DNA of 44,018 nucleotides, from sequence record NC_047806.1; one strand, written 5' to 3'. The notes under the pieces were generated by a model. It was not told where the DNA came from, did not search any database, and saw only the letters and a list, made by a program, of their open reading frames with translations. This document shows, piece after piece, positions 3,717-31,156 of this stretch (positions are counted from its first letter, which is position 1; the number at the start of each line of letters is the position of its first letter). A program made the position numbers and the translations under genes. This DNA is from Escherichia phage vB_EcoP_B.

Positions 3717-3769
3717 AATTAATTCCTCCATTCACTATACAATCAAGGGCAAGCTAATACCTACCCTTT

Positions 3770-6637: not shown

Positions 6638-6822
6638 GTAGGCCACTCCTTCAAGAAGGAGGACACCGCATCATGGAGGTTCTGTCTTAACCAATAGTCA
6701 TCCCATTGTCTCACCTCCACTAGCTTCTCACCAGTTTTGTAATCATAGGCAACCCCAATATACTGTCTGGTGATTGCATTGTAGCTAATGTCCAGTTCAA
6801 TTCGAGATTCAATAGTCGGCAT
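6550..6822 (-). CDS. hypothetical protein (90 aa)
   Basis: ORF track; ATG 6820-6822 with GGAG SD; 3' end overlaps exonuclease start by about 90 nt. Confidence 0.35.
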   Translation of the reverse strand: MPTIESRIELDISYNAITRQYIGVAYDYKTGEKLVEVRQWDDYWLRQNLHDAVSSFLKEWPTCDQTSTSELQYRKTIISSCGRLKVIESL

Positions 6823-6939
6823 AATTCATTCTCCAATAACTATTACGCAAAAGACCCTGCCTACACTAAGGCAGACAGGGCATTAGATGAGGTGAGCGTG
6901 ATAGTCAACTAGGACTAACAGAGGCTACACCTGCTATTA

Positions 6940-7311
6940 TCAAAACTCTTCCTCTTCGCTAACCGGAGCTTCCGGTGCAGACACTTCTACTGCCGGAGCT
7001 TCAGCTTCTTCAGCAGCTTTGACTTCTTTCACTGGTTTACCAGCAGCAATCCAATCCAGATATTCAGCTACGATGTTAGCCTTACCGATCTGGGCTTTGT
7101 CAGCCTGCTCAGGGAAGCAAGCACGAGCGAACTCCAGACCAGCAGCGAAGTTACCCATGCTGTCAATCTTAGCCTGAGCTTCTTCACGGGTATCGTAAGC
7201 CTTAGTACCAGCTACCAGTTGATCAGCTTCATCGACGATAATGAAAGACTCAACGGATACCAGAGCAGCACCTTTAACAACACGGTTTACGATAGTTTCA
7301 ATCTTGAACAT
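6940..7311 (-). CDS. hypothetical protein with acidic C-terminal tail ending in Phe (123 aa)
   Basis: ORF track; AAGGAG SD; C-terminus ...PEAPVSEEEEF; directly downstream of phage promoter at 7364-7384. Confidence 0.55.
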   Translation of the reverse strand: MFKIETIVNRVVKGAALVSVESFIIVDEADQLVAGTKAYDTREEAQAKIDSMGNFAAGLEFARACFPEQADKAQIGKANIVAEYLDWIAAGKPVKEVKAAEEAEAPAVEVSAPEAPVSEEEEF

Positions 7312-7363
7312 ATTAAATTCTCCTTTTGTTGGTTATGGCATTATCGCCGATTAAAATTCTTCT

Positions 7364-7384
7364 CTTCTATAGTGTCCAGTAAAT
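7364..7384 (-). promoter_or_regulatory. phage RNAP promoter
   Basis: ATTTACTGGACACTATAGAAG. Confidence 0.7.
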
Positions 7385-7399
7385 ACCGGACACCGATTT

Positions 7400-7415
7400 G
7401 TCTCACACGTGAGAC
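7400..7415 (-). other. GTCTCAC..GTGAGAC palindromic hairpin element
   Basis: gtctcacacgtgagac; between gene end 7417 and promoter 7364-7384. Confidence 0.5.
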
Positions 7416-7416
7416 T

Positions 7417-7635
7417 TTATAAAACTGTGTTCACCTGAGCAATGTCATGCGCCGGAAGCGATACGCCGTGGCGTTTCCCCGTAGCTGGGTCGCTGTAGTT
7501 CACCACGTGCTGTCCGTCGCGCCAGATGTAGTGCAGGTCGGCATATGTGTCCCCTTCAGAGAAGGAGTGAAAAGTGTTGCCGCCAAGAGTTGTAATTCCT
7601 TTCTTGCAGTGCAGGGTTACGATTTGTACTTTCAT
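7417..7635 (-). CDS. hypothetical protein (72 aa)
   Basis: ORF track; ATG with TTAAGGAG SD. Confidence 0.5.
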   Translation of the reverse strand: MKVQIVTLHCKKGITTLGGNTFHSFSEGDTYADLHYIWRDGQHVVNYSDPATGKRHGVSLPAHDIAQVNTVL

Positions 7636-7644
7636 CCTTTCTCC

Positions 7645-8451
7645 TTAATATTCCGCGTCCTCATCCATCTCCGGTGCAGGAGTATCTTCTGCTTCAGGTA
7701 CTTCCTGTGGAACAGACTCACCAGTATCCAGAGATTTACGATTAGCTGGGGTAGCATCTTCCTCGTCTTTCTTCTTAGCCTTCTTCCATTCAGGGTCTTC
7801 TTCACGAGCAGCTTTGATAATAGCTTCTACGTGAGAGCCAGCAACAGACAGGTTCTTACCACGAGGTGTCTCGTTCAGGAAGTATTGACGTACCAAGTTA
7901 GCTGGGATGTCATCAAGGATTTCTTTGGTCAGCTTGTCGAAGGTGATATGACCTGTCATAGACAGACCTTCCTCTTCTACCTGAGCCAGTACAAGCTTCT
8001 TCAACTTATCAGGCATACCGCCAAAGCCTTTCCAGTTAACATACTTGAAAGTACCATCATCATTCTTGTCGCCAGAGCCAACCATAGTTGCAGTCAGACA
8101 TTCACCGATAAAATCATCGAAGCCACCCAGCAACTCTTTAGGGTCAACTGCATTCAGGAACTTAGTCAGTGTTGCCTTATCACCAGACTTCAGAGGCACA
8201 GCCATCCATTGTTCCATGCGAGAATCATCTTCATTCTTATCGTCGTCACCCATCAGGATAATCTTAACAAGAACAAAGTTTGCTGGCTTCTTAACTTCAG
8301 TGGTATTACCTTTCTTAAAGATATCTTGGAAGGAACCAACATGAATGATGCCAGAGATTACTGCTTCATGATCACCAACTTCAGGGTTCTTAAATACTTT
8401 ACCTTCAGCTTTAGTAACCTGAGCACCAAAATCAAAATCACCACGTGCCAT
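7645..8451 (-). CDS. single-stranded DNA-binding protein (gp2.5-like), 268 aa
   Basis: ORF track; long acidic C-terminal tail ending ...EMDEDAEY (acidic tail with terminal aromatic, as in T7 gp2.5); promoter at 8510-8530 upstream. Confidence 0.65.
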   Translation of the reverse strand: MARGDFDFGAQVTKAEGKVFKNPEVGDHEAVISGIIHVGSFQDIFKKGNTTEVKKPANFVLVKIILMGDDDKNEDDSRMEQWMAVPLKSGDKATLTKFLNAVDPKELLGGFDDFIGECLTATMVGSGDKNDDGTFKYVNWKGFGGMPDKLKKLVLAQVEEEGLSMTGHITFDKLTKEILDDIPANLVRQYFLNETPRGKNLSVAGSHVEAIIKAAREEDPEWKKAKKKDEEDATPANRKSLDTGESVPQEVPEAEDTPAPEMDEDAEY

Positions 8452-8509
8452 TTATTTAGTCTCCTATTGTTACACTACACAATCATAGGCAGAACTAAGC
8501 CGACCTATT

Positions 8510-8530
8510 GTTCTATAGTGTCCAGTAATT
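8510..8530 (-). promoter_or_regulatory. phage RNAP promoter (upstream of SSB)
   Basis: AATTACTGGACACTATAGAAC. Confidence 0.65.
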
Positions 8531-8828
8531 ACTTATGAACTACCTTAATACGTGCAATAGTATCGAGAGGGTAGACATAACTAACACATTCACCATCTTC
8601 AACCTCTTGTACATTTACACTAGCCATAGTGTCACAAAGTGAAAGGCTCAATTGATGACAAGTTTCACCTTGAGTAAACTCTGGACCACGATAGGCATCT
8701 GCTTGTTCCACAGTAGTGATTGCTGTATCGTCTTCTTTAGCCAGACGAGTGTGACCTGCAACTTTACGCTGCTCTAGATCACGAAAGATGATACCTACAT
8801 GTTTAGCTTGAATCACTTCTTCCATCAT
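8529..8828 (-). CDS. hypothetical protein (99 aa)
   Basis: ORF track; AAGGAG SD. Confidence 0.45.
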   Translation of the reverse strand: MMEEVIQAKHVGIIFRDLEQRKVAGHTRLAKEDDTAITTVEQADAYRGPEFTQGETCHQLSLSLCDTMASVNVQEVEDGECVSYVYPLDTIARIKVVHK

Positions 8829-8834
8829 AACTCC

Positions 8835-9212
8835 TTATTTAGTCAAGTTGTCCAGTTCTATTTCCAGCATAACAATCTCTTTCTTCAGGCTGTCAGATGC
8901 AGCTTGATTTACAAGAGCAATTGATGCCTTGTTCTCTTCAAATTCAGCTTTCAGGCTGTCACGCTCTTGCTGGTGACGTGCCAGCATATCTTCTACCTCT
9001 TTGACTTGACGTGCATTTAGTTCATCACGAGATGCATAGTAGCGGTTATGACAGTCAATCATTTGAGAACTACGATGTTCTTCAACTTTAACTTGCTCTG
9101 CCTGTACTGCTTCGATGCGAGCCTCAATAGCTTTGATAGCCTTGGACTTGAACTTATTAGCAAGACCACGAAAGTATTGAGCCACGAATACCAGAGTAGT
9201 TACCATAGACAT
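8835..9212 (-). CDS. hypothetical protein with N-terminal hydrophobic segment and coiled-coil-like remainder (125 aa)
   Basis: ORF track; ATAGGAG SD; promoter at 9278-9299 upstream. Confidence 0.5.
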   Translation of the reverse strand: MSMVTTLVFVAQYFRGLANKFKSKAIKAIEARIEAVQAEQVKVEEHRSSQMIDCHNRYYASRDELNARQVKEVEDMLARHQQERDSLKAEFEENKASIALVNQAASDSLKKEIVMLEIELDNLTK

Positions 9213-9277
9213 ATTTATATCTCCTATATTTATTTAATTACCTATACTACCTTATAAACCTAGATTACCTAGGCTTT

Positions 9278-9299
9278 CCTTCTATAGTGTCCAGTAAAT
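9278..9299 (-). promoter_or_regulatory. phage RNAP promoter
   Basis: ATTTACTGGACACTATAGAAGG. Confidence 0.7.
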
Positions 9300-9581
9300 C
9301 ATGTTAGACTAAATAAGTAGGAATAAGTTATTCATAAAGGCCACTCGTAAGTGACCTTGAGTATAACTCAGTCGTAGTTACCATCACAATCTGGGTCAAT
9401 GCCAGAGAAAGCCCAGAATACTACCATAAATAATATGACTCCAAGAATAATAAAAGATGCCTGCATCAATCGTAACCCTCCTCTTCATCAGGTATATCTA
9501 ATCGCATACTTCCATAGCAAGCAAGCATAAGGAATATAAGAAAGAAGGTGGAGAATAGGCAAACAATATCAAACCTGTCCA

Positions 9582-12128
9582 TCAGTGTGTTTCCTTCCAA
9601 CTTGCACCAATCTTATACTCACCTGCCATCGGACAACGCATCTTCAGGTACTGACCTGCCCAAGTCATTGCATCGGCAATGATATGCCCTGCACGGTGAT
9701 AACGACGCTGGCAATGAAGTACACCAGCATCAGCATCAACACTAACGAGATTTGCAGCAGACCACATACGTCCTTCAGAATCCACATGAACACGTTTCTC
9801 CTCTGCATCGAACACTGCTTTCACAGCAGCCTTCTCTGTTTCGAACCCTTCTAAGGTGAAAGGCAAGTCGTAGTTGAGATACAAGACCTCATCTTCAGGG
9901 ACTTCCATCTGGATTTCATCGTGCACGTTAGCTATACCGCAAGGGTTTCCCATGCTATCTAAGGCCACACCTTCCTTGCGCATCACTGCAAACGCTCTGA
10001 CCAATGCGTATTTCATACACAGAGAACCAGTCATCTGGAGTAGTACGTTAAGCATAGTGTGCTCTTTAAGTTCACCACCAGACATACGGATGCGACCCCA
10101 ATGACCATCAGGTGCTTGTAGGTAGCCAAACTTGTTACCTTGTGCGATAACATTCTCACGAAGACGTGCAAGAGATGGTAGTTCAACCTCAAATCTTGCC
10201 ACAACTTCCTCCATTTCTTCCTCAGTAACACCACATACTGCTGCAAGGTTAGCTATACCAGACCCATATAGGAAGGCATATATAAATGTCTTCGCCATGT
10301 CACGCTTAGGAAGACCAGCCTTCATTTGATTATGGGTGTGAATGTCACCATGCAGTACAATATCTTGATATTCAGGGTCATTCATGAAGTGAGACAGTAC
10401 ACGTAGTTCAAGACCAGCACCATCACAACCAAGGATTAGCTTACCTTTACCGGCTATGAATAAATCACGTAAAGGATACAAACCACGGGCAGGAATATTA
10501 ACCACGTTACGATGACGCATACGGAACGTAGAAGTTCCAATACTAATAGCAATAGCTGGCACACGCCATTCTCCGTCATCCTTGTCTGACGTAGGCCAGC
10601 ATCCGTACCTTTCGTAGTATTGCTGCGCATTGATTCCTAACTCCTTGTTAAATGCTACAGGTACAAGGCCGCGACACTTTCGTATACCAGCTTGCGAAGG
10701 CCACACCCCCTTCTGGTCGAAGGCTTCAACGTCACCACGGTTGAGGATCTGACCACGACGGGATACGAGTATGTACCATGCAGCGATACCCAAGCACCAA
10801 TCAGGGACTGTTTTACCTTCACGTGCGGCTCTCTCTTGCCATAAAGTAAGGGACTTTTCATTTATCTTCCCACTCCAAGGCTTGGGTAATACGCCATGCT
10901 CATCGAGATGCGCTTGCTCGGTATCGTTAAATTCAACACCTTTCCATCCATAATCATAGAGCACTTGCTTAACTGTATCCCTGTTACCCAAGGGAATCTC
11001 TTCGAAAGTAACAGGCGAGTAAGCGCCAATCCACTTGATGCTTGGCGTGTCATTACGGTTTCCTCTAAGGTGAGGAAAGTCTTTCTTGACGCTAGCCGAC
11101 CAATCACCAGACTTAGTAGTGACACTCCATACTGTCTTGCGATCTCCTCGTCTCTCTGCGTGAAGAAAGTGAGAGGGGTCAAGGACAGTAGGTATATTGT
11201 TGCTAGCTCCATACTCATTTGCGCGTTGGCATACTTCATTCTTTTCTTCCGGTTTAAAAGGTTTAGACTTGATACGCATAGGCATGTGCGGACGGAACGC
11301 TGCGACTGTCTCATCAATCTTAGCGTCCAATTCCTCGCATCGTGCTAATGCTTTATCTATATCCAGACGGAATCCACGCTCGGCCTGACGGCTCATCTCC
11401 AGCGCCACAATGGACTCCATGTGGAAGGCTGTCTCAATACCTAGGCCAGTGCGTTTATTCACGCCACGGCGTTTGTGCTCCGTCCATTCTCCGTTAAATA
11501 GCCAGAGGAATAGGTCACGGCCTATCGCCACGTCCTCGCGTACACGATGTACCATGTGGTCAGTTAGTTTAGACCAATCCTCGTTCTCCGGCTTATAACG
11601 GCCTATACGAATGCCGTGCGCCTCAATTGAGTGAGGGGCTACGTTACCCATGCCTTTGGCGTATGCTTGCGGAGGGAGGCGTCTATCGGGGTTTAACAGG
11701 CGACTCATGACCAGCGTATCCATGACGCGTACCGGACACAGGTCAGCGCGGAGTCTGCCCTTGCCGCGTCTCTCGGTATAGTTAAAGCCTTTCCAGATAT
11801 CAGGGAATGCTTTCTCAAATAGAAGGCCGTCGTACCCTAGGAAGTTCTGTGAGACGATGGCTTCGCAGTGCTTAAGGAAGTTAACACCGTCAACCAATGT
11901 TCCATCTTGATGGCCTTCCCATTCTTTTAGGCGTTCTCTTGCTTCAGGGTCACGCATCTCGTATGGGTCAAAGAAGAGGAACTCCTCTGTAGTAAGCAAA
12001 TCCATGCAGCAAATGATGTGCACATCTTCGCGGTGGCCATATCGGATAGCATCCAGCAGGCCTTTAGCCTCAGAATCCATCACTAAGATGCGGCCTTCTG
12101 CTTCCTTCTTCCAATCAATTGATTTCAT
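9582..12128 (-). CDS. DNA polymerase (family A, T7 gp5-like), 848 aa
   Basis: ORF track 9582..12161 trimmed to ATG 12126-12128 with GGAG SD; motifs GCDGAGLELRVLSHF, KTFIYAFLYGSG, VHDEIQMEV match T7 DNA polymerase motifs A/B/C. Confidence 0.85.
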   Translation of the reverse strand: MKSIDWKKEAEGRILVMDSEAKGLLDAIRYGHREDVHIICCMDLLTTEEFLFFDPYEMRDPEARERLKEWEGHQDGTLVDGVNFLKHCEAIVSQNFLGYDGLLFEKAFPDIWKGFNYTERRGKGRLRADLCPVRVMDTLVMSRLLNPDRRLPPQAYAKGMGNVAPHSIEAHGIRIGRYKPENEDWSKLTDHMVHRVREDVAIGRDLFLWLFNGEWTEHKRRGVNKRTGLGIETAFHMESIVALEMSRQAERGFRLDIDKALARCEELDAKIDETVAAFRPHMPMRIKSKPFKPEEKNEVCQRANEYGASNNIPTVLDPSHFLHAERRGDRKTVWSVTTKSGDWSASVKKDFPHLRGNRNDTPSIKWIGAYSPVTFEEIPLGNRDTVKQVLYDYGWKGVEFNDTEQAHLDEHGVLPKPWSGKINEKSLTLWQERAAREGKTVPDWCLGIAAWYILVSRRGQILNRGDVEAFDQKGVWPSQAGIRKCRGLVPVAFNKELGINAQQYYERYGCWPTSDKDDGEWRVPAIAISIGTSTFRMRHRNVVNIPARGLYPLRDLFIAGKGKLILGCDGAGLELRVLSHFMNDPEYQDIVLHGDIHTHNQMKAGLPKRDMAKTFIYAFLYGSGIANLAAVCGVTEEEMEEVVARFEVELPSLARLRENVIAQGNKFGYLQAPDGHWGRIRMSGGELKEHTMLNVLLQMTGSLCMKYALVRAFAVMRKEGVALDSMGNPCGIANVHDEIQMEVPEDEVLYLNYDLPFTLEGFETEKAAVKAVFDAEEKRVHVDSEGRMWSAANLVSVDADAGVLHCQRRYHRAGHIIADAMTWAGQYLKMRCPMAGEYKIGASWKETH

Positions 12129-16336: not shown

Positions 16337-18964
16337 TTATGCGAAACAATAGTCTGAAACTAAGATTTCGTTAAGGTCAAACTCCCCTTGCTCTGGTACT
16401 TGGATTCCGGTGTCTACTAACCAACGCTCTTCGTGCACATCTAGCAGGTTTTGCAGGGCATTATGGTTTTGATACATCTTAACCATTTCTTCCCTTAAGC
16501 TATCCCGCAGGTCTGCGGTACGTCCTGCATGAGTACCGAAAGAATCATGGATGACTGCAATGGATGTAATACCTTTATCCACTAGGTCACATACAGTCAG
16601 AATCAGGTGGCTAGCATCGTGACCATGGACGAAGTTAGGAGCAGCCGCACCCATCATTGCCGTTTCATCAACTACATCTGTTTCAATCTGGAGACTCATC
16701 TTGATTTCACCCATCAAGCAAGTGGATACGCGGAGCATATCTGTAGCCATTATCTTTTGTTGCAAGATGAAGCCAGTTGGTAAGGGATATTCTAAGCCTT
16801 CGTTTCTTTTAGCTGCGAAACGTGCAAGCTGACGAATCATTTTCATTGCCACTATAGGAGCTTTAACCACTTCCGAGATAGAAGGCCAGATTAAAGCTGT
16901 CATATAGTTATAAGCTGCGCTAGGTGTCAGGCTGTCTTTACGGTCATTATCAAAAGGGTGTACAGGATTGGCGGTACGCCCTTCCGCAATAGCCCGTTGG
17001 GCCTCTTTTTCTTCTAAATCAACGATATAATCAATCACTGACTCACGGCAGGTTAGACGTGTGCTGCCATAAGGTAGTGTCATTACGGGCTTTTTGGTCA
17101 GGCCGCGAGTGATTCCTATCATATCCCACGCACTAGCCATACTACGCAGTTCCGCACCTGTTAAAGTCACGCTGCCAGAAGTGAAGGTTTCCGCATCCTC
17201 TGCATTCATGTATGCATAATTCTTCTGAATTACTACCTGCGCAACGGCACCATAAATATCTTGAGGAGAGTCAGAGGGCTTAAGGTTTACTGCTTTCGCA
17301 CCTACTGCATCGCGTAGCATAGCACTGTAGTGCTGGATACCAGAACAACTACCATCTTGATGGACTGGGAGGTGCGTCATGAATTGGTCTTGCGTGCCTT
17401 CATCCAGTGCATCCAGATAACGCGCATATTCAAAGCACCATGCAAGGAAGCCGTAAGGGGAGTCGGCATTTACCCATTGAGTGAAGGTCAGCGGATCCGC
17501 TGCAATGTCGCGGCACATGTCTTGAAATTCACCATCCAGCACGTTAGCGGTGCGCACGTCAAAAGTTTTCTTATCCCAACCCCAGTTATTAGCCCCGTTC
17601 ACCAAAAACCACTTAAGCGCCTCAGCGCTATCAAGACGCTGCCCTTCGGTAAAACGGAGCAATGCCTTGCCTAAGTCGTTTGATTGCGGAGAGAGCGTGC
17701 TAGATTGCGCGTAGACGCGGCTGCGGCTGTCCAGAGCATACACGAAGTATATTGCGTCAAATTGGCTGTATTTACGGGCCTGCCCTACCATGCGGACGGT
17801 CGCCGCCGATTTGCTGCCGCGCTTAGTCTCAGCGGTATACAGCTTGGTGCATTCACCTTTCCAGTTGATGAAGGCTTGCCATTGTTCCGGTGTTAACATT
17901 TCTTTCAGTTCACGTCCTCGCAGGTGCTGGAACTCTAACGGCACCGGATTAGCTGGCTTGTTCTCACGGTCGATGAGTGGTTTAAAGGAAGGTACACCAT
18001 AGCCGAGGTCTAGACGTATAACGTCCTCCACAACCTGTAAAACCTCTTTATTAACCTGCCACTTAGTTGCCTGCAAAGCGTTAACAGCCTTATAAACGGC
18101 TGGCATTTGCTTTTTGGTCAGCTTGCGGACGTGCTCACGATTGCCTTTTACCAGACGAATACGGCTTGCTACTTTCTCAGTATGAAACCCACCGTTAAAA
18201 GGTGATACCCAAGGGCGGGGAGGTATAACGCAAGGTGCATAGGCAGGGCTGAGCTGCGCTACATGTTCCTTAAATGCAGTTATCCACTCTCCAACATGTT
18301 CACTGGTCTGTAAATAGTAAACACCATGCTTTCCGCCGTTAGTGCGCAAGGTACGAAGGAAGACAGGTTGACCATTGAAGAATACACTATTCTCCAATAT
18401 TTCGAGCAAGGTCATACCGATTTGCAGCAAGGTGTCTTTAGGCCATGCCTCCCAACGGGAGAAATCCGCGTCACGGTCAGCAACAGATTTCTCAGCTACT
18501 ACCGCTACGTTGTGCGCATGACGATAAGATTTAGTCTTGCTAGCCTTAAGCGACTTCTTCACTTTCTCAAAGTACTTAGCTGCGTGACCTTCCAGCTTGC
18601 TAAAACGTACTTGGTCTTCGATGCGGTCCGCTACATTCATAGCGATGGCTTGTAAGGTAACGTCTGTATTCAGCATGTCCATAACGATTTTCATGGTGAT
18701 ATATGCTGCTACTTCGTTTTCTACGCAGTTAATGAAAGCTAATGCACGCGGTGCGCGGCCTCTTTTACCTTCGTACTCTTCCTTATAAGCCTGAATACCT
18801 TCCGCCATAGGTGCGATTAGTTCGGACAATAAGCGGCGATTCCATGCCGTGTCTGATTCATTACCGGATGCAATCTGGCGTTGTTGGTCCGCTTCAAAGC
18901 GACGGATACCGCCGTTAAACATTTCTTCTTCAAGTTGAAGTTGAATAGCGTGTAGGTCTTGCAT
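16337..18964 (-). CDS. single-subunit DNA-directed RNA polymerase (T7/SP6-like), 875 aa
   Basis: ORF track; [18 protein letters not shown] and C-terminal ...DYCFA match T7 RNAP catalytic and foot motifs; length close to SP6-group RNAP; AGGAG SD. Confidence 0.9.
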
Positions 18965-21915: not shown

Positions 21916-22085
21916 TTGTCTAACGTGTGAGACTAAGGAAAAAAAAAAAAAAAAAAAAGCAATAGATACAGAGCTAGGATAGGCTAGATTGGCTAGGTAT
22001 TCCAAACGTGAAGGGGAGAAAAAGGAAAAAAAAAAAAAAAAAAAAGCAATAGATACAGAGCTAGGATAGGCTAGATTGGCTAGGT
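21916..22085. repeat. tandem direct repeat (two about 87-bp units) each containing an A20 tract; probable genome-terminus / terminal-repeat junction
   Basis: 62-bp exact repeat GG-A20-GCAATAGATACAGAGCTAGGATAGGCTAGATTGGCTAGGT at 21937-21998 and 22024-22085; lies between last late gene and first early gene. Confidence 0.7.
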
Positions 22086-22320: not shown

Positions 22321-22847
22321 GAGTGAACGGAGCGCAAGCGGAGTGAGGAGCAGTGAGTGAAGCGTAGCGAAACGAACAGATAGCCCACACCCTCATGCCC
22401 TGTCAAACGCTCAGGAATGGCCCTAAAACGGCCTGTGTAAGCCCTAAGCGGTTGCACTAAGGCAATCACCTTGTCCAATACTAAGGCGCGCCCTAGCGCT
22501 TCCTAGGTGTTCTCCTTGTGCAGCCACTAAGAGCAGACCTCGGCAAGCTCTAGGCCACCCGTCGAGCTTCCTGCGGCAGCAGGTTGAAGACGGACCAGCC
22601 CAGCCCAATTCCCAAGCCAACCGCAGCGCGGCCCCATATGGGGGAAATCCGGCGAGGGCGAGGGCGAGAGAGCTGACACACGCCTATATCAAAATTTTGA
22701 CTTTGGTTACTTTGTGACCACCTTTGGTCTGCCCTTTTGGTTACACTAAGATTATTCCTGCTAAGTACAGGTACACCAGCAGTGGGCCATAGATACATGC
22801 TGTGCATAAGAGGGCTAACAGTAGGTCTTTCATGTTACCTCATTTGA

Positions 22848-23003: not shown

Positions 23004-23196
23004 CAAACCTCCTTTGGGTTGCACTAAGGGCCAACCTAAGCCAGCCCTTGTGCAGACTAAGTGTTACTGCTTCGCAGACGATGCAGAGGCCTTACTCAAT
23101 ACTCTACGTTGAACATCCTTGGCAATGGCATATGCCTGCTTAGGGTCACGTCCTGATTGAATAAGCTCTTCTGTGTTCTGGAGTACAGCAGCTTGC

Positions 23197-25632
23197 TTAA
23201 CTGGTTTTATTAGTGGCATACATCTCCTCTAACTTGTCTAAACGATAACGAGTATAAGCAGCCTCCAAGATTAAGATTTCACTATATCTAACACCAAACT
23301 GACCTTCTTCGAAGGAGACAATGCCGAAGTCGATTGCATCTAACCCTTCGGATGCAAAAGCAGCTACAATGTCTTGTGCCAATACACCAAAGTGAGTGTG
23401 ATGCACACCACTAGACATCTCTCCAATCAACTTGTACTGCTTGAAGGCAACCTTGCCCCATGCCTTTAGTACACCCTCATCAATACCTTGTGATCCATAC
23501 TTATGAGTGGCATCAGACGTAATAATAGGGTCACTTGTAAGATGGATAGTAGTGAATCTATTACGAGGGCCGCCAGCAGGATACACGTTATCATTGTATG
23601 GCATGATAGCCCCGCTTTGGAACAAGTGCTCATTGGCATTATATACTGCGCGTCTAGAAGTACTAGAACCTGCTCCATGTAAGGTAATTTGCGCACCGGT
23701 ATCTGCTGCTGTACCCTCTCCACCAGAGATGATGACACGTTGGGCAGTTGGGTTATCCGTTGGTATAGTCTTACCAATGAACCCATATTCACCTTCCATC
23801 AGCATCTCTGAGCGAATATTAGCACTTGTACTTGCCTTCAGGGTAAGGTGTTCGACAGTCATATCTGCGGCAACTACCTCTCCTGATAAGTGAAGTGGAG
23901 CAGGAATAGTACGAATACCATCAGTACCCATGAAGGTAGGTATAGCCTGACCCGGAGTTGCACCATATGTAAACTTACGAGATACACGATTGTCATTTGC
24001 AATCTGCATCTTATAGCAGTATATATCAGTGGGGTGTCCATGACCTTTAAATGGGTCTTTATCTTTGTTGTCACCATAAGTCATTGGGTTGAAATGGTTT
24101 TCTCCACCAAAGATATAGTAAATGTAGCTGTCTTTAACTACTACCGAACCTACACCTACACTAGAGTTCACAATGTCACCCTGATAGATTTGGTCTGTGA
24201 TGTTAACCCATTCAATGTCATCTGCATTCCACTTGTTTACATTCAATCGTGCATAGAAGGTACGAGGATAAGATGCCTTGTAACGATCATCGGGTGCACC
24301 TGCTTCCCATTCATTTTCTGCACGTTCTGAACCAAACATAATAAGGTCATCTCCTACTTTAGCAAAAGGTAAGGTAGTATGATGAACATTATGTGGAAAT
24401 CTTAGTGACTCCCAAGTTTGACCTATATCTCTACTACGATGCAGAGAGCTTCCTAGTCGATCGCCACGAGTACCACGAGTGATAAGGTACAATACACCGT
24501 CATAGTACTTGATGCATGGCTCTGCCGCATCTGGTTCATACTCAGATGGTATCTGACGACGAACATAATTAGATGGGCTATTGAAAGCATCAGGGAAGTA
24601 GAAAAGCCCAACTTCTCGTGGAGCTACATCACCTTGATGATAGCCCATAACAAAGCCATTGTTATCAATAGTAGCAAAGCTATGCACCTCTGTGACACGA
24701 GTGATTAGACCAAGATCTGTCTTACGCCAAGGAGATTTATGGAAAGAAGTACCCATGTGCCAACTCTTTCCAGCGTTATTCAAATCTGAAGTCTGCTGGT
24801 TAGGTGTAAGAACCGTGAAGTTGTCCTTATCTATTACTGTTGCAACCTTCATATCACCAGATACACCTGTTACCGCAGAGTTAGAGAAGTTAACAAAATC
24901 ACCAACGAAGAGTCCGTGATCAGGTACATGGATTGTTGCATATCTCTGATTTGCAGCCTTAGTGATACCACCAGTAAGATGCAGACTACGAGACATAGGG
25001 CGATCCCACAATGCACAATTGGTTAGTGCGTTCTTGGCTAAAGTACGTGTTTCAATCATGGCAAACAGACGGTTGCGACATACACCCATACTCATACAAT
25101 GATAGTTCACTGTAGGGTAATCTGGATGCAGATCAGTTAACCACTCTGGAGTAGACCATGTTTGACCATCGTCACCAGACTTAACCCATGATACATGCAG
25201 ACGACTAACACCATGACGGTCGCTACCCATGTAAGGTGCATATATCACGTTCTCATATACAAACGCTTTGTCTTGAGGCCAAGCATTGTAATAAGGGTTA
25301 TCCGTGATTTTATAGAGTTCACCATTGATAAAACCTTTACTCACATAGTAAAGAGGTTGACCTGCTAAACGTTCCCATACGAAGCGGGTGTTATAGAATC
25401 GCTCCATATCAGGTAAAGATGATACTTTGTAAGTAGCACCAGCACCGTCAATTCTCTTACCTGAAGCCATCGCTGCATTTACTGCATCTTGGTCGTTTGT
25501 CTTACCATCACCTTTGGCTCCAAAATCTTTAAGCGATACAACCTCGGTGAGCTTGTCATCCAAGTTACGCCAGATTGCACCTGCTATTTTACTCTTGAAT
25601 TTAACTAATGAAGAACCTAGTCTTTGAATCAT
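23197..25632 (-). CDS. tailspike with endosialidase (endo-N-acetylneuraminidase) catalytic domain, 811 aa
   Basis: ORF track; two sialidase Asp-boxes SGDDGQTW and SRDIGQTW; C-terminal chaperone-like segment; AAAGGAGG SD; last structural gene before genome end as in K1E/K1-5-type phages (from memory). Confidence 0.8.
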   Translation of the reverse strand: MIQRLGSSLVKFKSKIAGAIWRNLDDKLTEVVSLKDFGAKGDGKTNDQDAVNAAMASGKRIDGAGATYKVSSLPDMERFYNTRFVWERLAGQPLYYVSKGFINGELYKITDNPYYNAWPQDKAFVYENVIYAPYMGSDRHGVSRLHVSWVKSGDDGQTWSTPEWLTDLHPDYPTVNYHCMSMGVCRNRLFAMIETRTLAKNALTNCALWDRPMSRSLHLTGGITKAANQRYATIHVPDHGLFVGDFVNFSNSAVTGVSGDMKVATVIDKDNFTVLTPNQQTSDLNNAGKSWHMGTSFHKSPWRKTDLGLITRVTEVHSFATIDNNGFVMGYHQGDVAPREVGLFYFPDAFNSPSNYVRRQIPSEYEPDAAEPCIKYYDGVLYLITRGTRGDRLGSSLHRSRDIGQTWESLRFPHNVHHTTLPFAKVGDDLIMFGSERAENEWEAGAPDDRYKASYPRTFYARLNVNKWNADDIEWVNITDQIYQGDIVNSSVGVGSVVVKDSYIYYIFGGENHFNPMTYGDNKDKDPFKGHGHPTDIYCYKMQIANDNRVSRKFTYGATPGQAIPTFMGTDGIRTIPAPLHLSGEVVAADMTVEHLTLKASTSANIRSEMLMEGEYGFIGKTIPTDNPTAQRVIISGGEGTAADTGAQITLHGAGSSTSRRAVYNANEHLFQSGAIMPYNDNVYPAGGPRNRFTTIHLTSDPIITSDATHKYGSQGIDEGVLKAWGKVAFKQYKLIGEMSSGVHHTHFGVLAQDIVAAFASEGLDAIDFGIVSFEEGQFGVRYSEILILEAAYTRYRLDKLEEMYATNKTS

Positions 25633-25699: not shown

Positions 25700-26035
25700 T
25701 TACGCACTGACAATGTGTTTACCTAGAATGTAAACATCTACATCTATGTCTATTTCAACTTGTGCTGTATGGAATACATGTACTTCTAATCTAGTATCTG
25801 ACACTTTAGTAATCCAAGCTGTACAAAGTGTAGGTGTACTTAATGATACAAGTGATGCCCACGAAGAATCTAAATCTCCTGTTGCAGGTACTTCTATCTC
25901 AATTTTAGTATCTTCACTTGGAACTACACCTTCAAATGTAACACGCCTTTTAGATAGTAAATTATCCAATAATGTAGCTAGTACAGTATCTCTATGTAGT
26001 AAGCCAGTTGTCTTGGGTTTAGTTAACTTAGCCAT
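25700..26035 (-). CDS. short ORF upstream of tailspike (111 aa); possible remnant or adaptor of a second tail protein
   Basis: ORF track 25700..26095 trimmed to ATG 26033-26035 with AGGAG SD; phage promoter 26117-26137 directly upstream. Confidence 0.5.
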   Translation of the reverse strand: MAKLTKPKTTGLLHRDTVLATLLDNLLSKRRVTFEGVVPSEDTKIEIEVPATGDLDSSWASLVSLSTPTLCTAWITKVSDTRLEVHVFHTAQVEIDIDVDVYILGKHIVSA

Positions 26036-26116
26036 ATACTCTCCTATTACTTCCCAACCCTCCCTATGAAGATTGGCTAGTAATAGGCCGCTCAAAAGAA
26101 CGGCACTATCTTATCT

Positions 26117-26137
26117 CTTCTATAGTGTCCAGTAAAT
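26117..26137 (-). promoter_or_regulatory. phage RNAP promoter (upstream of tailspike operon)
   Basis: ATTTACTGGACACTATAGAAG. Confidence 0.7.
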
Positions 26138-26166
26138 CGTAAGACACTGATACATAAAACTATGTA

Positions 26167-26711: not shown

Positions 26712-27056
26712 TTACCATCGTGCACATCCCTCTCTTACATCAATGTGGGTGAAATTAGGATAAGACCCAATGCCATATTTATTGGGGTAGCGTGCTGTTA
26801 GATAGGACCATACACGGTAAGGTGTAATACCTTGTACCTTAATGTCAGCAGCCTTACCAGTAAGATGCATGGAGTTCTTAGCACCTCCCACATTAGCATT
26901 GTGCTTAGCACAGCGGTGTCCAGAAGTAATAACTACAGGAGCACCAAAGTGCTCACGTACATCTGTGACTACCTGTAGTAACTCAGCATCTACTGTGGAT
27001 GTACCGCACCCACAACGGCAAGCGAACTCACGGCGCTTGAAGTGTTTGTTAAGCAT
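26712..27056 (-). CDS. endolysin, peptidase M15-type (115 aa)
   Basis: ORF track 26712..27125 trimmed to ATG 27054-27056 with GAGG SD; zinc-peptidase signature SMHLTGKAADI (SxHxxGxAxD) and downstream FTHID. Confidence 0.7.
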   Translation of the reverse strand: MLNKHFKRREFACRCGCGTSTVDAELLQVVTDVREHFGAPVVITSGHRCAKHNANVGGAKNSMHLTGKAADIKVQGITPYRVWSYLTARYPNKYGIGSYPNFTHIDVREGCARW

Positions 27057-27076
27057 TATTGACCTCGTCTTTACAA

Positions 27077-27364
27077 TTAAGCCGCAGGTGTTACAGGGTC
27101 CGACTCCATAGTAGTTGCATCCCACTTGTCGGTGGGTTCACTCCCACGTGCAATAGCGATGTACAAGGATTGGTCTGTTTTCTCTACAGCAACCATGGCA
27201 CCTTTCTGTTTACCAGAGAGGTGTTTAATGTTGATAGGATGATCTTTCTTCTTAAGGTCTGCTTCAGCAACAATAGGCAAAGGGATTGCCGTTGCAGTGG
27301 TTTGTACAGTTTTTACTCGAAAAGCCTGACCAGTAACAGTACCTGCGGTTCCATATTTAGACAT
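27077..27364 (-). CDS. small protein, paralog B (95 aa)
   Basis: ORF track; strong SD AAGAGGAG; shares SGKQKGAMV...IAIA...TPA with neighbour. Confidence 0.5.
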   Translation of the reverse strand: MSKYGTAGTVTGQAFRVKTVQTTATAIPLPIVAEADLKKKDHPINIKHLSGKQKGAMVAVEKTDQSLYIAIARGSEPTDKWDATTMESDPVTPAA

Positions 27365-27788: not shown

Positions 27789-27810
27789 CCTTCTATAGTG
27801 TCCGGTAATT
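27789..27810 (-). promoter_or_regulatory. phage RNAP promoter (overlaps terminase stop)
   Basis: AATTACCGGACACTATAGAAGG. Confidence 0.65.
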
Positions 27811-29707
27811 AATAAGTCCTTGAAATCCTTGCAGAAAGTGTATTTCTGCTTGCCGATTTACTCCTGTAATTCTGACCGTATACTCTTTGCTGCATAGCCA
27901 CGGAAGTGTTGGTTACTCTTCGCTCAGTGCCATAATCTCCATAGAGCATTGCCCTACGGAGGTGAGGTGTGTTCATAGCATGGATGTAATCGCGCATCTC
28001 CTGCGCTCTGAGGCGATTAATCCGTGTAACCTCGTCATAGTCTATCTGAGAAGTTAATTGCCGTATAGCGCCATACAGAGCGTCTAAGCGGTCATCGTGT
28101 CGTAGGCTGTTCTTCTCAATCGTGATGTTCGACATTTGATTGAAAAGGCTGTATGACATGCGTAGTTCAAGCGGATAGTGCTGTACCGACTCAAAATCAG
28201 ACTTGACCATCTCTGCGTTGAAGATGAGCCTGTGGGCCGCCATTAGTGGCTCTAGTGTTTCAATGATACGCAACTCTTTCTGTCCGGTGGCGTAATCTTC
28301 CTCCAGAGTCACAGGCCACTCTCGTTCAAAGTATGGCTTTATAACGGCCTCAAACGCGCCATGACCAAAGTTCTTTTCAATGAATACCTCTTTAACACCT
28401 GCCTGCTTTGCGGCCTGCACAATGCGATTCAGGGACGATTCGCGGTATCCTCCCGGAACACCAAAGCACTGATACACATAAATGAATGTGCCGTGCAGGA
28501 AGACGATAGACACACCCGTTTCATCCCCGTTCTTACCGCCACCTGCGGGGTCAATATACATAATCTTTCGGGTAACAGCACCCCACTCATAAGGTCGGGC
28601 CACAGGGCGATACATAAAGTCTGTAGGCTTATTGCCATACTTCGGTGCATCGCCAATGATGTTAATAGAGTCGTTGCTCCATGTAGGCATCACAGGGACT
28701 TCCTCTGTACCGAATGAAGTGAAGATGAGGTTGTTCAGGCGTAGTGGATAGCGGTCAGCATCCATCATGCGAGTGTTAAGCATAAACTGAAGCTGGAACT
28801 TAGCCGCACCCTGCGAGATTTCCTTCTCGATCAGCACATCATCATCATACATTTCAGGTGCACAAGGTGCACCACTATTGCCATCCAAGCCATACCCTGA
28901 GCGAAGTGCTGGGTTGTCCTTCATATCCTGCACAATCATAGGTGCAAGGAAGTCACCATAGCATTGCTCCTGCTCCACTGAGGGATAACGTGCAGTCCAG
29001 ATACGAACAGAGTAACCACGAGCAGGTAGGTTATTGTAGATAGAGTTTACGTTCTGAGGAGTACCAAGGTAGATAATATCACCAAACTGGTTAATAGATT
29101 CAAACTCCTTGGTCAGTTCCTCAAGCAAGGCACGTCCTGCCGCTGTACGAGCATTCTGCATTGACTCAACGTCATCTGCTAGGATGATATCTGCACGCGC
29201 ACCCTGCATACCTGCTTCGATTGAGTAACAAGACACAGAAGGCGACTTGTCACTGCCACGTAGGGTGTAATGAATCTCAAATGCCTTAACTGAGGCACGG
29301 TCCCCTGCGTAGATGTCCGGTAGCATAAACTCAAGAAAGTCTAGGCCACGGAAGATTTTAACTACCCAACCTGCGATTTCCTCTGCTCGCTTGGCGTTTT
29401 GGGATACTACCATGATACGCTTATGGGGTTCATGGATGATACGGAAAACAGTATAGATTGCTGATAGTGTAGTTTTAGCGATACCACGGGGCGCTTCGAT
29501 GAGGCGATATTTATGTCCATAGAATAGAAACTTTAAAATATCGGCCTGCATACGAATCAGATGAGGGTTGCCTGCAATCAAGTTATGGATAACTGTATCT
29601 GCAAAGAGAAGCAAACCTTCCGCCGTATACTGAAAAGTCTGCTGTAACTCCTGTAGCATCTCCCATCTGGCAAGAGCCTCCGCTTGTGATTCTCTTGCCT
29701 TAGCCAT
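27809..29707 (-). CDS. terminase large subunit (gp19-like), about 632 aa
   Basis: ORF track 27809..29710 (TTG) trimmed to ATG with CTAAGGAGG SD; Walker A-like PRGIAKTT; size and position. Confidence 0.8.
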   Translation of the reverse strand: MAKARESQAEALARWEMLQELQQTFQYTAEGLLLFADTVIHNLIAGNPHLIRMQADILKFLFYGHKYRLIEAPRGIAKTTLSAIYTVFRIIHEPHKRIMVVSQNAKRAEEIAGWVVKIFRGLDFLEFMLPDIYAGDRASVKAFEIHYTLRGSDKSPSVSCYSIEAGMQGARADIILADDVESMQNARTAAGRALLEELTKEFESINQFGDIIYLGTPQNVNSIYNNLPARGYSVRIWTARYPSVEQEQCYGDFLAPMIVQDMKDNPALRSGYGLDGNSGAPCAPEMYDDDVLIEKEISQGAAKFQLQFMLNTRMMDADRYPLRLNNLIFTSFGTEEVPVMPTWSNDSINIIGDAPKYGNKPTDFMYRPVARPYEWGAVTRKIMYIDPAGGGKNGDETGVSIVFLHGTFIYVYQCFGVPGGYRESSLNRIVQAAKQAGVKEVFIEKNFGHGAFEAVIKPYFEREWPVTLEEDYATGQKELRIIETLEPLMAAHRLIFNAEMVKSDFESVQHYPLELRMSYSLFNQMSNITIEKNSLRHDDRLDALYGAIRQLTSQIDYDEVTRINRLRAQEMRDYIHAMNTPHLRRAMLYGDYGTERRVTNTSVAMQQRVYGQNYRSKSASRNTLSARISRTY

Positions 29708-30006
29708 CAATCCTCCTTAGTGAATTGGATGATCTTGCCACTTGATGCCTCTCGGATAGCCTTGAGGCGCTTAGATAGCTTGGACTCCTCCTGCTGTGCA
29801 GCGGGTGTAGCGGTAATACCATTATCAAGAACCCACTTACACATAGCTCCAATGTCTTTACCAGAGACTAAATGCAGTGCTGCATCTGGGTCTTCTTCTA
29901 TAGTGTCCAGTATTGCCTGTGCTTTCTTATTAAAGATTTTGGTAATAGCACCATGTAGAATGCCAACCTCGTCTTCCGTAGCTGCATGTTTATTGTGTAC
30001 GCTCAT
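29707..30006 (-). CDS. terminase small subunit (gp18-like), about 99 aa
   Basis: ORF track 29707..30051 trimmed to ATG 30004-30006 with GGAGGAGG SD; position between holin and large terminase. Confidence 0.55.
   Translation of the reverse strand: MSVHNKHAATEDEVGILHGAITKIFNKKAQAILDTIEEDPDAALHLVSGKDIGAMCKWVLDNGITATPAAQQEESKLSKRLKAIREASSGKIIQFTKED
29895..29915 (-). promoter_or_regulatory. phage RNAP promoter-like sequence inside small terminase gene
   Basis: CAATACTGGACACTATAGAAG (5' end diverged). Confidence 0.45.
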
Positions 30007-30193: not shown

Positions 30194-31156
30194 TTACACT
30201 AGTTGTAACTTCATACTTACGACACACTCAGGCAATGGCTCACTGAAAGTGATAGTAGAGCCTACGATTTCATAAGTATTATTAGGTTGATACAGTCCAT
30301 CCAAATATACATCAAGACGTTGGAAAGCCGTTACAATGTCGATAGATTGTGTACCTTCACTCACTGCTTGTGTAAAGAGGATAGTATCCGCACTTGTAGG
30401 TGGGGTTAAGCGACTACCGATAAGCACATAAACTTCATCTCCAGCCTGTAATGGCTCGGACAGGGTTATAACATCATACCCCACTGATACTGCACCTGCT
30501 AGCTCATGCTGGAATACACCGTTTATAAACACCATAGCATCATCAAATGAGTAAGGTGGTCGAATGATTTGCTCTCCACCGGAGGCGACCATATACCAAG
30601 GAATAGTGCGATGAGATACACCAGACACCATTCCTCTCTTAATACCAGCAATCTCTATATCTTGTGCAGAGTTCCAATCAGTATGCTTCTTGTCGATAGC
30701 ATCTAGCTGTGATTTATTTACTGCATCTTTTGGATTCTCACCATCAGCTAGGTCAGTAATCTTATTGCCGCCCCAGCTTACATTCTGCTTAATGAAGTAC
30801 CCTTCTGGATAAAACCCATCAAGTAACTCCTGTGTAATCTCCAGTATATGAATGAAAGAACCATTTAAAGACTTCATATCCAAGGTAACACCACGGTCAA
30901 ACTCAGCGTATGGATATTCTTTTTGTACTTCCCTTCGAATACGGAACTTCAAACCTGCAACGGGTGCTACATCAAAAGTGATTTGATGCGTACCAGTTAA
31001 TTGCCAGCCAGATGTAATCTCAATCCAAGTGTTACCTTGAAGAGATTCCACTATCACATCTGAGGCACGAAGATAGCCTTTATCCCTGCCAGCAAAGCTA
31101 AAGGGATAGGTTACTTGCGTACCGTTGGCTATATGTTCTGTGAAAGTATAACTCAT
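30194..31156 (-). CDS. tail-fibre-like adaptor protein, about 320 aa
   Basis: ORF track 30194..31159 (TTG) trimmed to ATG with GGAGGA SD; N-terminus resembles tail-attachment domain of T7 gp17; no receptor-binding-sized C-terminus. Confidence 0.6.
   Translation of the reverse strand: MSYTFTEHIANGTQVTYPFSFAGRDKGYLRASDVIVESLQGNTWIEITSGWQLTGTHQITFDVAPVAGLKFRIRREVQKEYPYAEFDRGVTLDMKSLNGSFIHILEITQELLDGFYPEGYFIKQNVSWGGNKITDLADGENPKDAVNKSQLDAIDKKHTDWNSAQDIEIAGIKRGMVSGVSHRTIPWYMVASGGEQIIRPPYSFDDAMVFINGVFQHELAGAVSVGYDVITLSEPLQAGDEVYVLIGSRLTPPTSADTILFTQAVSEGTQSIDIVTAFQRLDVYLDGLYQPNNTYEIVGSTITFSEPLPECVVSMKLQLV

Follow-up and report, generated by a model that had tools for sequence, protein, structure and literature searches.

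Biochemical characterisation of the endosialidase tailspikes of K1 coliphages dates from the 1980s, and structural characterisation from 2005. The capsule type K1 is a marker of avian-pathogenic E. coli and of strains that cause neonatal meningitis and sepsis. In phage K1F, the spike gp17 (endoNF) has the catalytic residues H350, R549, E581, R596 and R647, a sialic-acid binding site in its beta-barrel, and three binding sites for polysialic acid (polySia) in all (PMC12632334). In phage K1E, an adaptor carries both gp47 and a truncated, inactive gp46, and the phage infects K1 strains only; phage K1-5, whose lyase is intact, infects K5 strains as well as K1 strains (PMC6966330). According to PMC5715158, the laboratory derivative PK1A2 has an endosialidase that, owing to two substitutions, still binds polysialic acid but no longer cleaves it. 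Phages vB_EcoP_K, C, D and R are members of the therapeutic collection of Smith and Huggins, a set of nine K1-specific phages (PMC5582158).

The window, which is the whole stretch of 44,018 nucleotides analysed here (record NC_047806.1, Escherichia phage vB_EcoP_B), contains a homologue of gene 47 of K1E and K1-5 (Table 1). Comparisons at the sequence level indicate that its product is very probably an endo-alpha-2,8-sialidase tailspike and the sole enzymatic receptor-binding protein of a K1E-like (Vectrevirus) podophage. The protein is already known, and so is the kind of phage that encodes it. A preliminary description had placed an 811-aa tail protein at 23197-25632; exactly this ORF is present, on the minus strand, which that description left unstated. 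It starts with an ATG at 25632, with a ribosome-binding site (AAGGAGGT) a few bases ahead.

Table 1. Features of the endosialidase locus and of associated genes in the window (aa, residues of the endosialidase unless a gene is named; nt, nucleotides of the endosialidase gene)
Feature	Position	Strand	Remarks
Endosialidase (endo-N-acetylneuraminidase) tailspike gene, homologue of K1E/K1-5 gene 47	23197..25632	-	Intact ORF, 811 aa
N-terminal segment, aa 1-38	25519..25632	-	100% identical to K1E and K1-5 gp47; outside the endoNF crystal construct
End_N_terminal, N-terminal extension of the catalytic part, aa 39-102	25327..25518	-	PF12218, E=2.3e-35
Six-bladed beta-propeller catalytic domain, aa 103-545	23998..25326	-	PF12217 End_beta_propel, E=5.7e-222
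Beta-barrel (lectin-like) inserted in the propeller, aa 214-296	24745..24993	-	PF12195, E=1.7e-46
Trimeric beta-helix stalk (End_tail_spike), aa 546-705	23518..23997	-	PF12219, E=4e-85
C-terminal intramolecular chaperone, aa 706-811	23200..23517	-	PF13884 Peptidase_S74 ('Chaperone of endosialidase'), aa 706-763, and 3GW6 alignment
Divergent block versus K1E, nt ~1680-2400	23233..23953	-	Spans the greater part of the stalk and almost the whole chaperone; PK1A-type allele
gp48-like ORF, 51 aa	23064..23219	-	Shares 23 nt with the 3' end of the endosialidase gene; 90% identical to K1-5 gp48; phrog_2423
Gene 46 remnant, 111 aa, second tailspike slot	25700..26035	-	97.3% identical to K1E gp46; phrog_15083, unknown function
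SP6/K1E-type phage RNA polymerase promoter, CGATTTACTGGACACTATAGAAGAGA	26114..26139	-	Upstream of genes 46 and 47; one of the 11
gp37 adaptor (tail fibre-like), 320 aa, links tailspike to tail	30194..31156	-	99.4% identical to K1E gp37; phrog_2710, tail fiber protein

The domain structure of the protein follows the endosialidase plan from end to end. Five Pfam endosialidase domains occur in canonical order (End_N_terminal, End_beta_propel, End_beta_barrel, End_tail_spike and Peptidase_S74), and the End_beta_propel model is matched from its first to its last position (1-367 of 367). A search of the PDB returned the endoNF structures 1V0E, 3GVJ/K/L and 3JU4 at E=0, covering aa 38-705, together with the phi92 endosialidase 4HIZ (E=1.7e-225) and the endoNF stalk-plus-chaperone construct 3GW6 (E=1.5e-58). 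The earlier identification as an endosialidase is borne out by similarity to endosialidases throughout, from the E=0 matches to endoNF (1V0E/3GVL) to all of the Pfam domains. The chaperone-like segment proposed for the C-terminus is likewise recovered, by Peptidase_S74 at aa 706-763 (E=2.4e-8) and by the 3GW6 match.

Two Asp-boxes, SGDDGQTW and SRDIGQTW, were named in the preliminary description. Both are present inside the beta-propeller, at aa 152-159 (window 25156-25179) and aa 400-407 (window 24412-24435), respectively. Both match the strict pattern S-x-D-x-G-x-T-W, which occurs nowhere else in the window when all six frames are translated. An origin of these motifs by chance was considered and rejected: approximately 0.0004 Asp-boxes are expected per protein (analytic estimate from the composition of the endosialidase itself), and only 8 of 5000 shuffled endosialidase sequences (0.0016) contained even one. 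The shuffle frequency and the analytic expectation lie about fourfold apart, and both are tiny.

Among the described spikes, K1F gp17 has solved structures, and its catalytic architecture, catalytic residues and Ser/Lys pair are the same as here. The alignment to endoNF stops exactly at T705, the counterpart of endoNF T910 and the end of mature endoNF. The following residue, S706, aligns with endoNF S911, which is Ala in the non-cleavable 3GW6 mutant, and K711 aligns with K916. We take Ser706 and Lys711 to be the Ser/Lys self-cleavage pair of the MEROPS S74 family. The chaperone is predicted to be released by self-cleavage at Ser706, which would leave a mature protein ending at T705. The stalk is predicted to carry a further polySia binding site. 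The residues that we assume to form the stalk binding site of endoNF, R837, S848 and Q853, correspond on the alignment to R632, A643 and Q648, and the stalk has a 5-aa insertion relative to endoNF. The chaperone is much more divergent, with approximately 43% identity to K1F over the last 261 aa in tblastn. Moreover, endoNF bears a long T7 gp17-like N-terminal domain for direct attachment to the tail, whereas the protein described here has a 38-aa N-terminus and a separate gp37 adaptor. These first 38 residues probably dock the spike on that adaptor, a role ascribed to the short N-terminus by Leiman 2007, as summarised in PMC6966330.

The closest deposited relatives of the gene are phage endosialidase genes. 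DNA identity over the gene is 99.8% to vB_EcoP_K, 99.3% to vB_EcoP_C, D and R, 97.9% to PK1A, 97.8% to mutPK1A2, 90.5% to K1E gp47 and 89.9% to K1-5 gp47, and near-identical endosialidase genes (99.3-99.8%) had already been deposited. The recorded host of vB_EcoP_K, C, D and R is E. coli O18ac:K1:H7 ColV+. The vB_EcoP_K endosialidase (KY295897, AQN31909) likewise has 811 aa and the same flanking genes, 46 and 48; three residues differ, with T311, R389 and E639 here in place of P, C and G in phage K. Outside the endosialidase, the genome is nearer to vB_EcoP_C, D and R (approximately 98%) than to the shortened vB_EcoP_K record. The gp47 proteins of K1E (endoNE) and K1-5 have equal length, occupy the same place as the last large gene and belong to the same gp37 adaptor system. 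Their aa 1-102 are 100% identical to the gene product described here, and the propeller is 98-99% identical.

This kinship extends over the genome. Each half of the window can be aligned to K1E, vB_EcoP_C and vB_EcoP_R over 93-99% of its length, with identities of 96-98%; for K1E, 93-97% of each half is aligned at 96-97% identity, and identity reaches 98% for vB_EcoP_C and R. By these alignments, the phage is a Vectrevirus (K1E-like, SP6-related Autographiviridae/Molineuxvirinae). All genes of the window lie on the minus strand. Both ends of the K1E genome map to window positions 22381-22669, which amount to one collapsed copy of the 289-bp terminal repeat. The two ends of the window meet within the portal gene, and the sequence therefore represents a complete genome that is permuted and reverse-complemented.

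Transcriptional signals are of the same type. A motif scan identified 11 SP6/K1E-type promoters on the coding strand, approximating (A/T)TTTAC(T/C)GGACACTATAGAAG, with cores ..GACACTATAGAAG and ..TTTACTGGACACTATAGAAG... One of them precedes genes 46 and 47, and the scan detected no promoter of this type between these two genes. An 875-aa ORF at 16337-18964 lies where the matched genomes are annotated 'RNA polymerase'. Scans for sigma-70 promoters and intrinsic terminators around the endosialidase gene returned sites no commoner than in shuffled sequence, and they are uninformative because transcription here is by the phage polymerase.

Whether the virion carries a second active depolymerase depends on the other occupant of the adaptor. 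The gp37 homologue of K1E is annotated as 'endosialidase adaptor protein', and an adaptor of this type can hold two spikes (PMC6966330). Together with the K1-5 gene order, which is the same as here, and a K1-5 gp47 gene with 89.9% DNA identity, this would fit a phage of dual specificity like K1-5, whose K5 lyase or other second enzyme would widen the host range beyond K1. However, gene 46, directly upstream of the endosialidase gene, is a 111-aa ORF with 97% identity to K1E gp46, which is truncated. This remnant lacks an enzymatic domain, and its resemblance to the K5 lyase of K1-5 (632 aa) is confined to the first 45 N-terminal residues, at 40% identity. A full-length K5 lyase (632 aa) was looked for in the gene 46 position and is absent. 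PHROGs scans of all other large ORFs of the window yielded no second tailspike; they gave ligase, phosphoesterase, exonuclease, internal virion proteins, tail tube, terminase and endolysin. Dual specificity is consequently very unlikely.

The presence of a gp46 remnant in place of a K5 lyase indicates a K1E-type phage, specific for K1 alone, as opposed to the K1-5 type (K1 plus K5). In this respect, the earlier assignment to a K1E/K1-5-like group, made from the endosialidase together with SP6-type promoters and gene order, can be narrowed: the 11 promoters and the 96-98% genome match to the K1E group agree with it, but the K1-5 type does not apply, as gene 46 is a 111-aa remnant. With only an inactive gp46 in the second slot and no other tailspike, adsorption should depend on the K1 capsule alone. 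The sequence, together with the hosts on record for near-identical phages, hence predicts a K1-only host range. Possession of a K1 capsule is no guarantee that a given strain will be productively infected (PMC12632334). The practical value of the result lies in annotation, in that a host range strictly dependent on the K1 capsule, and exclusive of K5, can be predicted from the gene, with relevance for phage therapy and for the use of the endosialidase as a polysialic-acid reagent.

Several residues bear on whether the spike cleaves its ligand. Alignment maps the five endoNF catalytic residues H350, R549, E581, R596 and R647 to H140, R339, E371, R386 and R437, all conserved (5/5). The records of PK1A and mutPK1A2 (MG004687) differ at H417Y, N489D and R614G. 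Of these changes, H417Y and N489D were looked for in the endosialidase and are absent, the wild-type H417 and N489 being present. Position 614 carries G, as in mutPK1A2 (the PK1A record has R614) and as in active endoNF, where the equivalent residue is G819. Because G also occurs in the active enzyme, this position is best regarded as a harmless polymorphism and not as inactivating. N489 corresponds to endoNF N699, a loss-of-function position in the K1F mutational scan (PMC12632334). With H417 and N489 in the active state, and N489 at that loss-of-function position, the enzyme is predicted to be catalytically competent. A spike that binds polysialic acid and is catalytically dead, like that of the laboratory mutant PK1A2, might be suspected from the PK1A-type allele, from the place of mutPK1A2 among the closest relatives (97.8%) and from the shared G614; it is highly improbable given wild-type H417 and N489, intact endoNF catalytic residues throughout and the occurrence of G614 in active endoNF.

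Depolymerisation of alpha-2,8 polysialic acid is the probable activity, as the catalytic domain is 98-99% identical to that of the characterised endoNE and endoNF. A sialidase-fold spike with another substrate (alpha-2,9 or mixed-linkage K92 polysialic acid), or an exo-sialidase, has a negligible probability: Asp-boxes by themselves do occur in many exo-sialidases and unrelated beta-propellers, and Pfam BNR_2 gives a weak, sub-threshold match, but propeller and barrel show 98-99% identity to K1E endoNE, aa 103-500 are nearly identical to endoNF, including every substrate-contacting catalytic residue, and phages isolated on K1 strains carry near-identical genes.

A course of events for the endo-alpha-2,8-sialidase can be proposed from the solved homologue endoNF and from cryo-EM of K1E (PMC12632334, PMC6966330), to which the present analysis contributes the gp46 remnant and the lack of another tailspike. 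The 811-aa precursor would trimerise with the aid of its C-terminal chaperone domain, which would then cut itself off at Ser706 through the Ser706/Lys711 pair to give a mature spike of 705 aa. Six such trimers per virion would dock by their short N-termini on the gp37 adaptor at the tail. The sites in the beta-barrel and stalk would bind polysialic acid while the propeller site (H140, R339, E371, R386 and R437) cleaves it, and the phage would reach the outer membrane by processive tunnelling through the K1 capsule. Since the second adaptor slot would be filled by the inactive 111-aa gp46 remnant, adsorption would take place on the K1 capsule only.

Within this conserved framework, the 3' end of the gene is mosaic. 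DNA identity to the K1E gene is 97-100% up to nt ~1680 and drops to 58-78% over nt 1681-2400. At the protein level, identity to K1E is 98.6% in the propeller, 71.9% in the stalk and 71.7% in the chaperone. The stalk/chaperone identity of approximately 72% to K1E/K1-5 gp47 marks a recombinant block at nt ~1680-2400. When the last 261 aa were compared by tblastn, endosialidase-bearing phages fell into two discrete classes, a PK1A type (at least 95% identical, 15 records) and a K1E/K1-5 type (60-80%, 20 records). The PK1A endosialidase, endoNA (EF507428), has the same allele over its full length, including stalk and chaperone, with 17 amino acid differences. The PK1A-type stalk/chaperone allele is not new, as it is in the databases through PK1A.

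With the stalk and chaperone at approximately 72% identity to K1E, and the last 261 aa at approximately 43% to K1F, there may be differences of degree in processivity and in folding. In the deep mutational scan of K1F, the stalk is called a 'tuning knob', both for processivity and for discriminating between K1 strains (PMC12632334), and exchange of this allele might accordingly have functional consequences. We tentatively suggest that Vectrevirus K1 phages maintain two discrete stalk-plus-chaperone alleles on an almost invariant catalytic head, and that their swap could be an adaptive module exchange altering processivity or the range of K1 strains infected efficiently (by O-antigen or O-acetylation status), a proposal that is possible but doubtful at present. 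If it is correct, the swap might be one reason why the Smith and Huggins phages differ in therapeutic performance. The two-allele structure constitutes a small, testable point on modular tailspike evolution.

Identity to K1E returns to 97% in the last 36 nt of the gene, where the small gp48-like ORF starts. This ORF is also annotated in vB_EcoP_K and mutPK1A2.

The window (1-44018) is the whole phage genome in circularly permuted and reverse-complemented form. The portal gene, corresponding to gp29 of the Vectrevirus phage K1E, spans the junction of the window ends at about K1E position 23083-23086. Both ends of the K1E genome map to a single copy of a 289-bp terminal repeat, which begins with TCTCGCCCTCGCCCTCGCC on the minus strand. 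The same strand carries 11 phage promoters, which share the core GACACTATAG(A/G)A and occur between window positions 3767 and 42673. Their consensus, ATTTACTGGACACTATAGAAG, departs at positions -12 to -9 from that of SP6, ATTTAGGTGACACTATAGAAG.

Features of the phage genome in window coordinates
Feature	Coordinates	Strand	Remarks
gp48-like conserved ORF	23064-23219	-	51 aa; phrog_2423
Large terminase gene, intact	27809-29710	-	633 aa
Peptidase M15-like endolysin	26712-27125	-	phrog_894; terminase on one side, gene 46 on the other
70-nt element, two direct copies	21929-21998 and 22016-22085		97% identical, 87 nt apart
Terminal repeat	22381-22669		Single copy
Promoter 5' ends	42673, 29917, 27812, 26139, 16246, 13728, 13035, 9301, 8532, 7386, 3792	-	

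The boundary of the divergent module encoding the stalk and chaperone of the endosialidase appears to coincide with a gene junction. The gp48-like ORF overlaps the final 23 nt of the endosialidase gene, and 97% identity to K1E resumes where this overlap starts. Such a recovery of identity suggests that the recombination boundary respects the downstream gp48-like gene. Within the stalk, position 614 (window 23791-23793) varies between related records. Endosialidases in the PK1A (EF507428) and mutPK1A2 (MG004687) records, the latter from a PK1A derivative with a non-cleaving enzyme, differ by H417Y, N489D, and R614G. Because G614 is common to the window, mutPK1A2, and the solved K1F endosialidase endoNF, R614 of the PK1A record looks like an outlier. 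The literature (PMC5715158), however, counts two substitutions in the PK1A2 endosialidase, not three.

Gene content also distinguishes the window from K1E. In K1E, the putative homing endonuclease gene gp40.5 interrupts the large terminase gene, yielding gp40A and gp40B, whereas the terminase gene of the window is uninterrupted. This difference accounts for part of the disparity in size between the two. The endolysin ORF, as listed from a GTG start, encodes 137 aa, compared with 114 aa for K1E gp43; therefore, translation probably begins at an internal ATG.

Early genes provide another point of comparison. The vB_EcoP_K record (KY295897) comprises 37,775 bp, and within its positions 6800-9710 the replicative helicase gene is located about 1 kb past the genome-end region. 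Hence, the bulk of the early genes appears to be absent from this record, among them the RNA polymerase region that the window contains. Either a genuine deletion or faulty assembly could explain the gap.

The two copies of the 70-nt element sit in the non-coding region that separates the terminal repeat from the first early genes of the window. Each contains a 20-nt homopolymer run, read as A on the plus strand and T on the coding strand, and homopolymers of this length carry a risk of assembly error.
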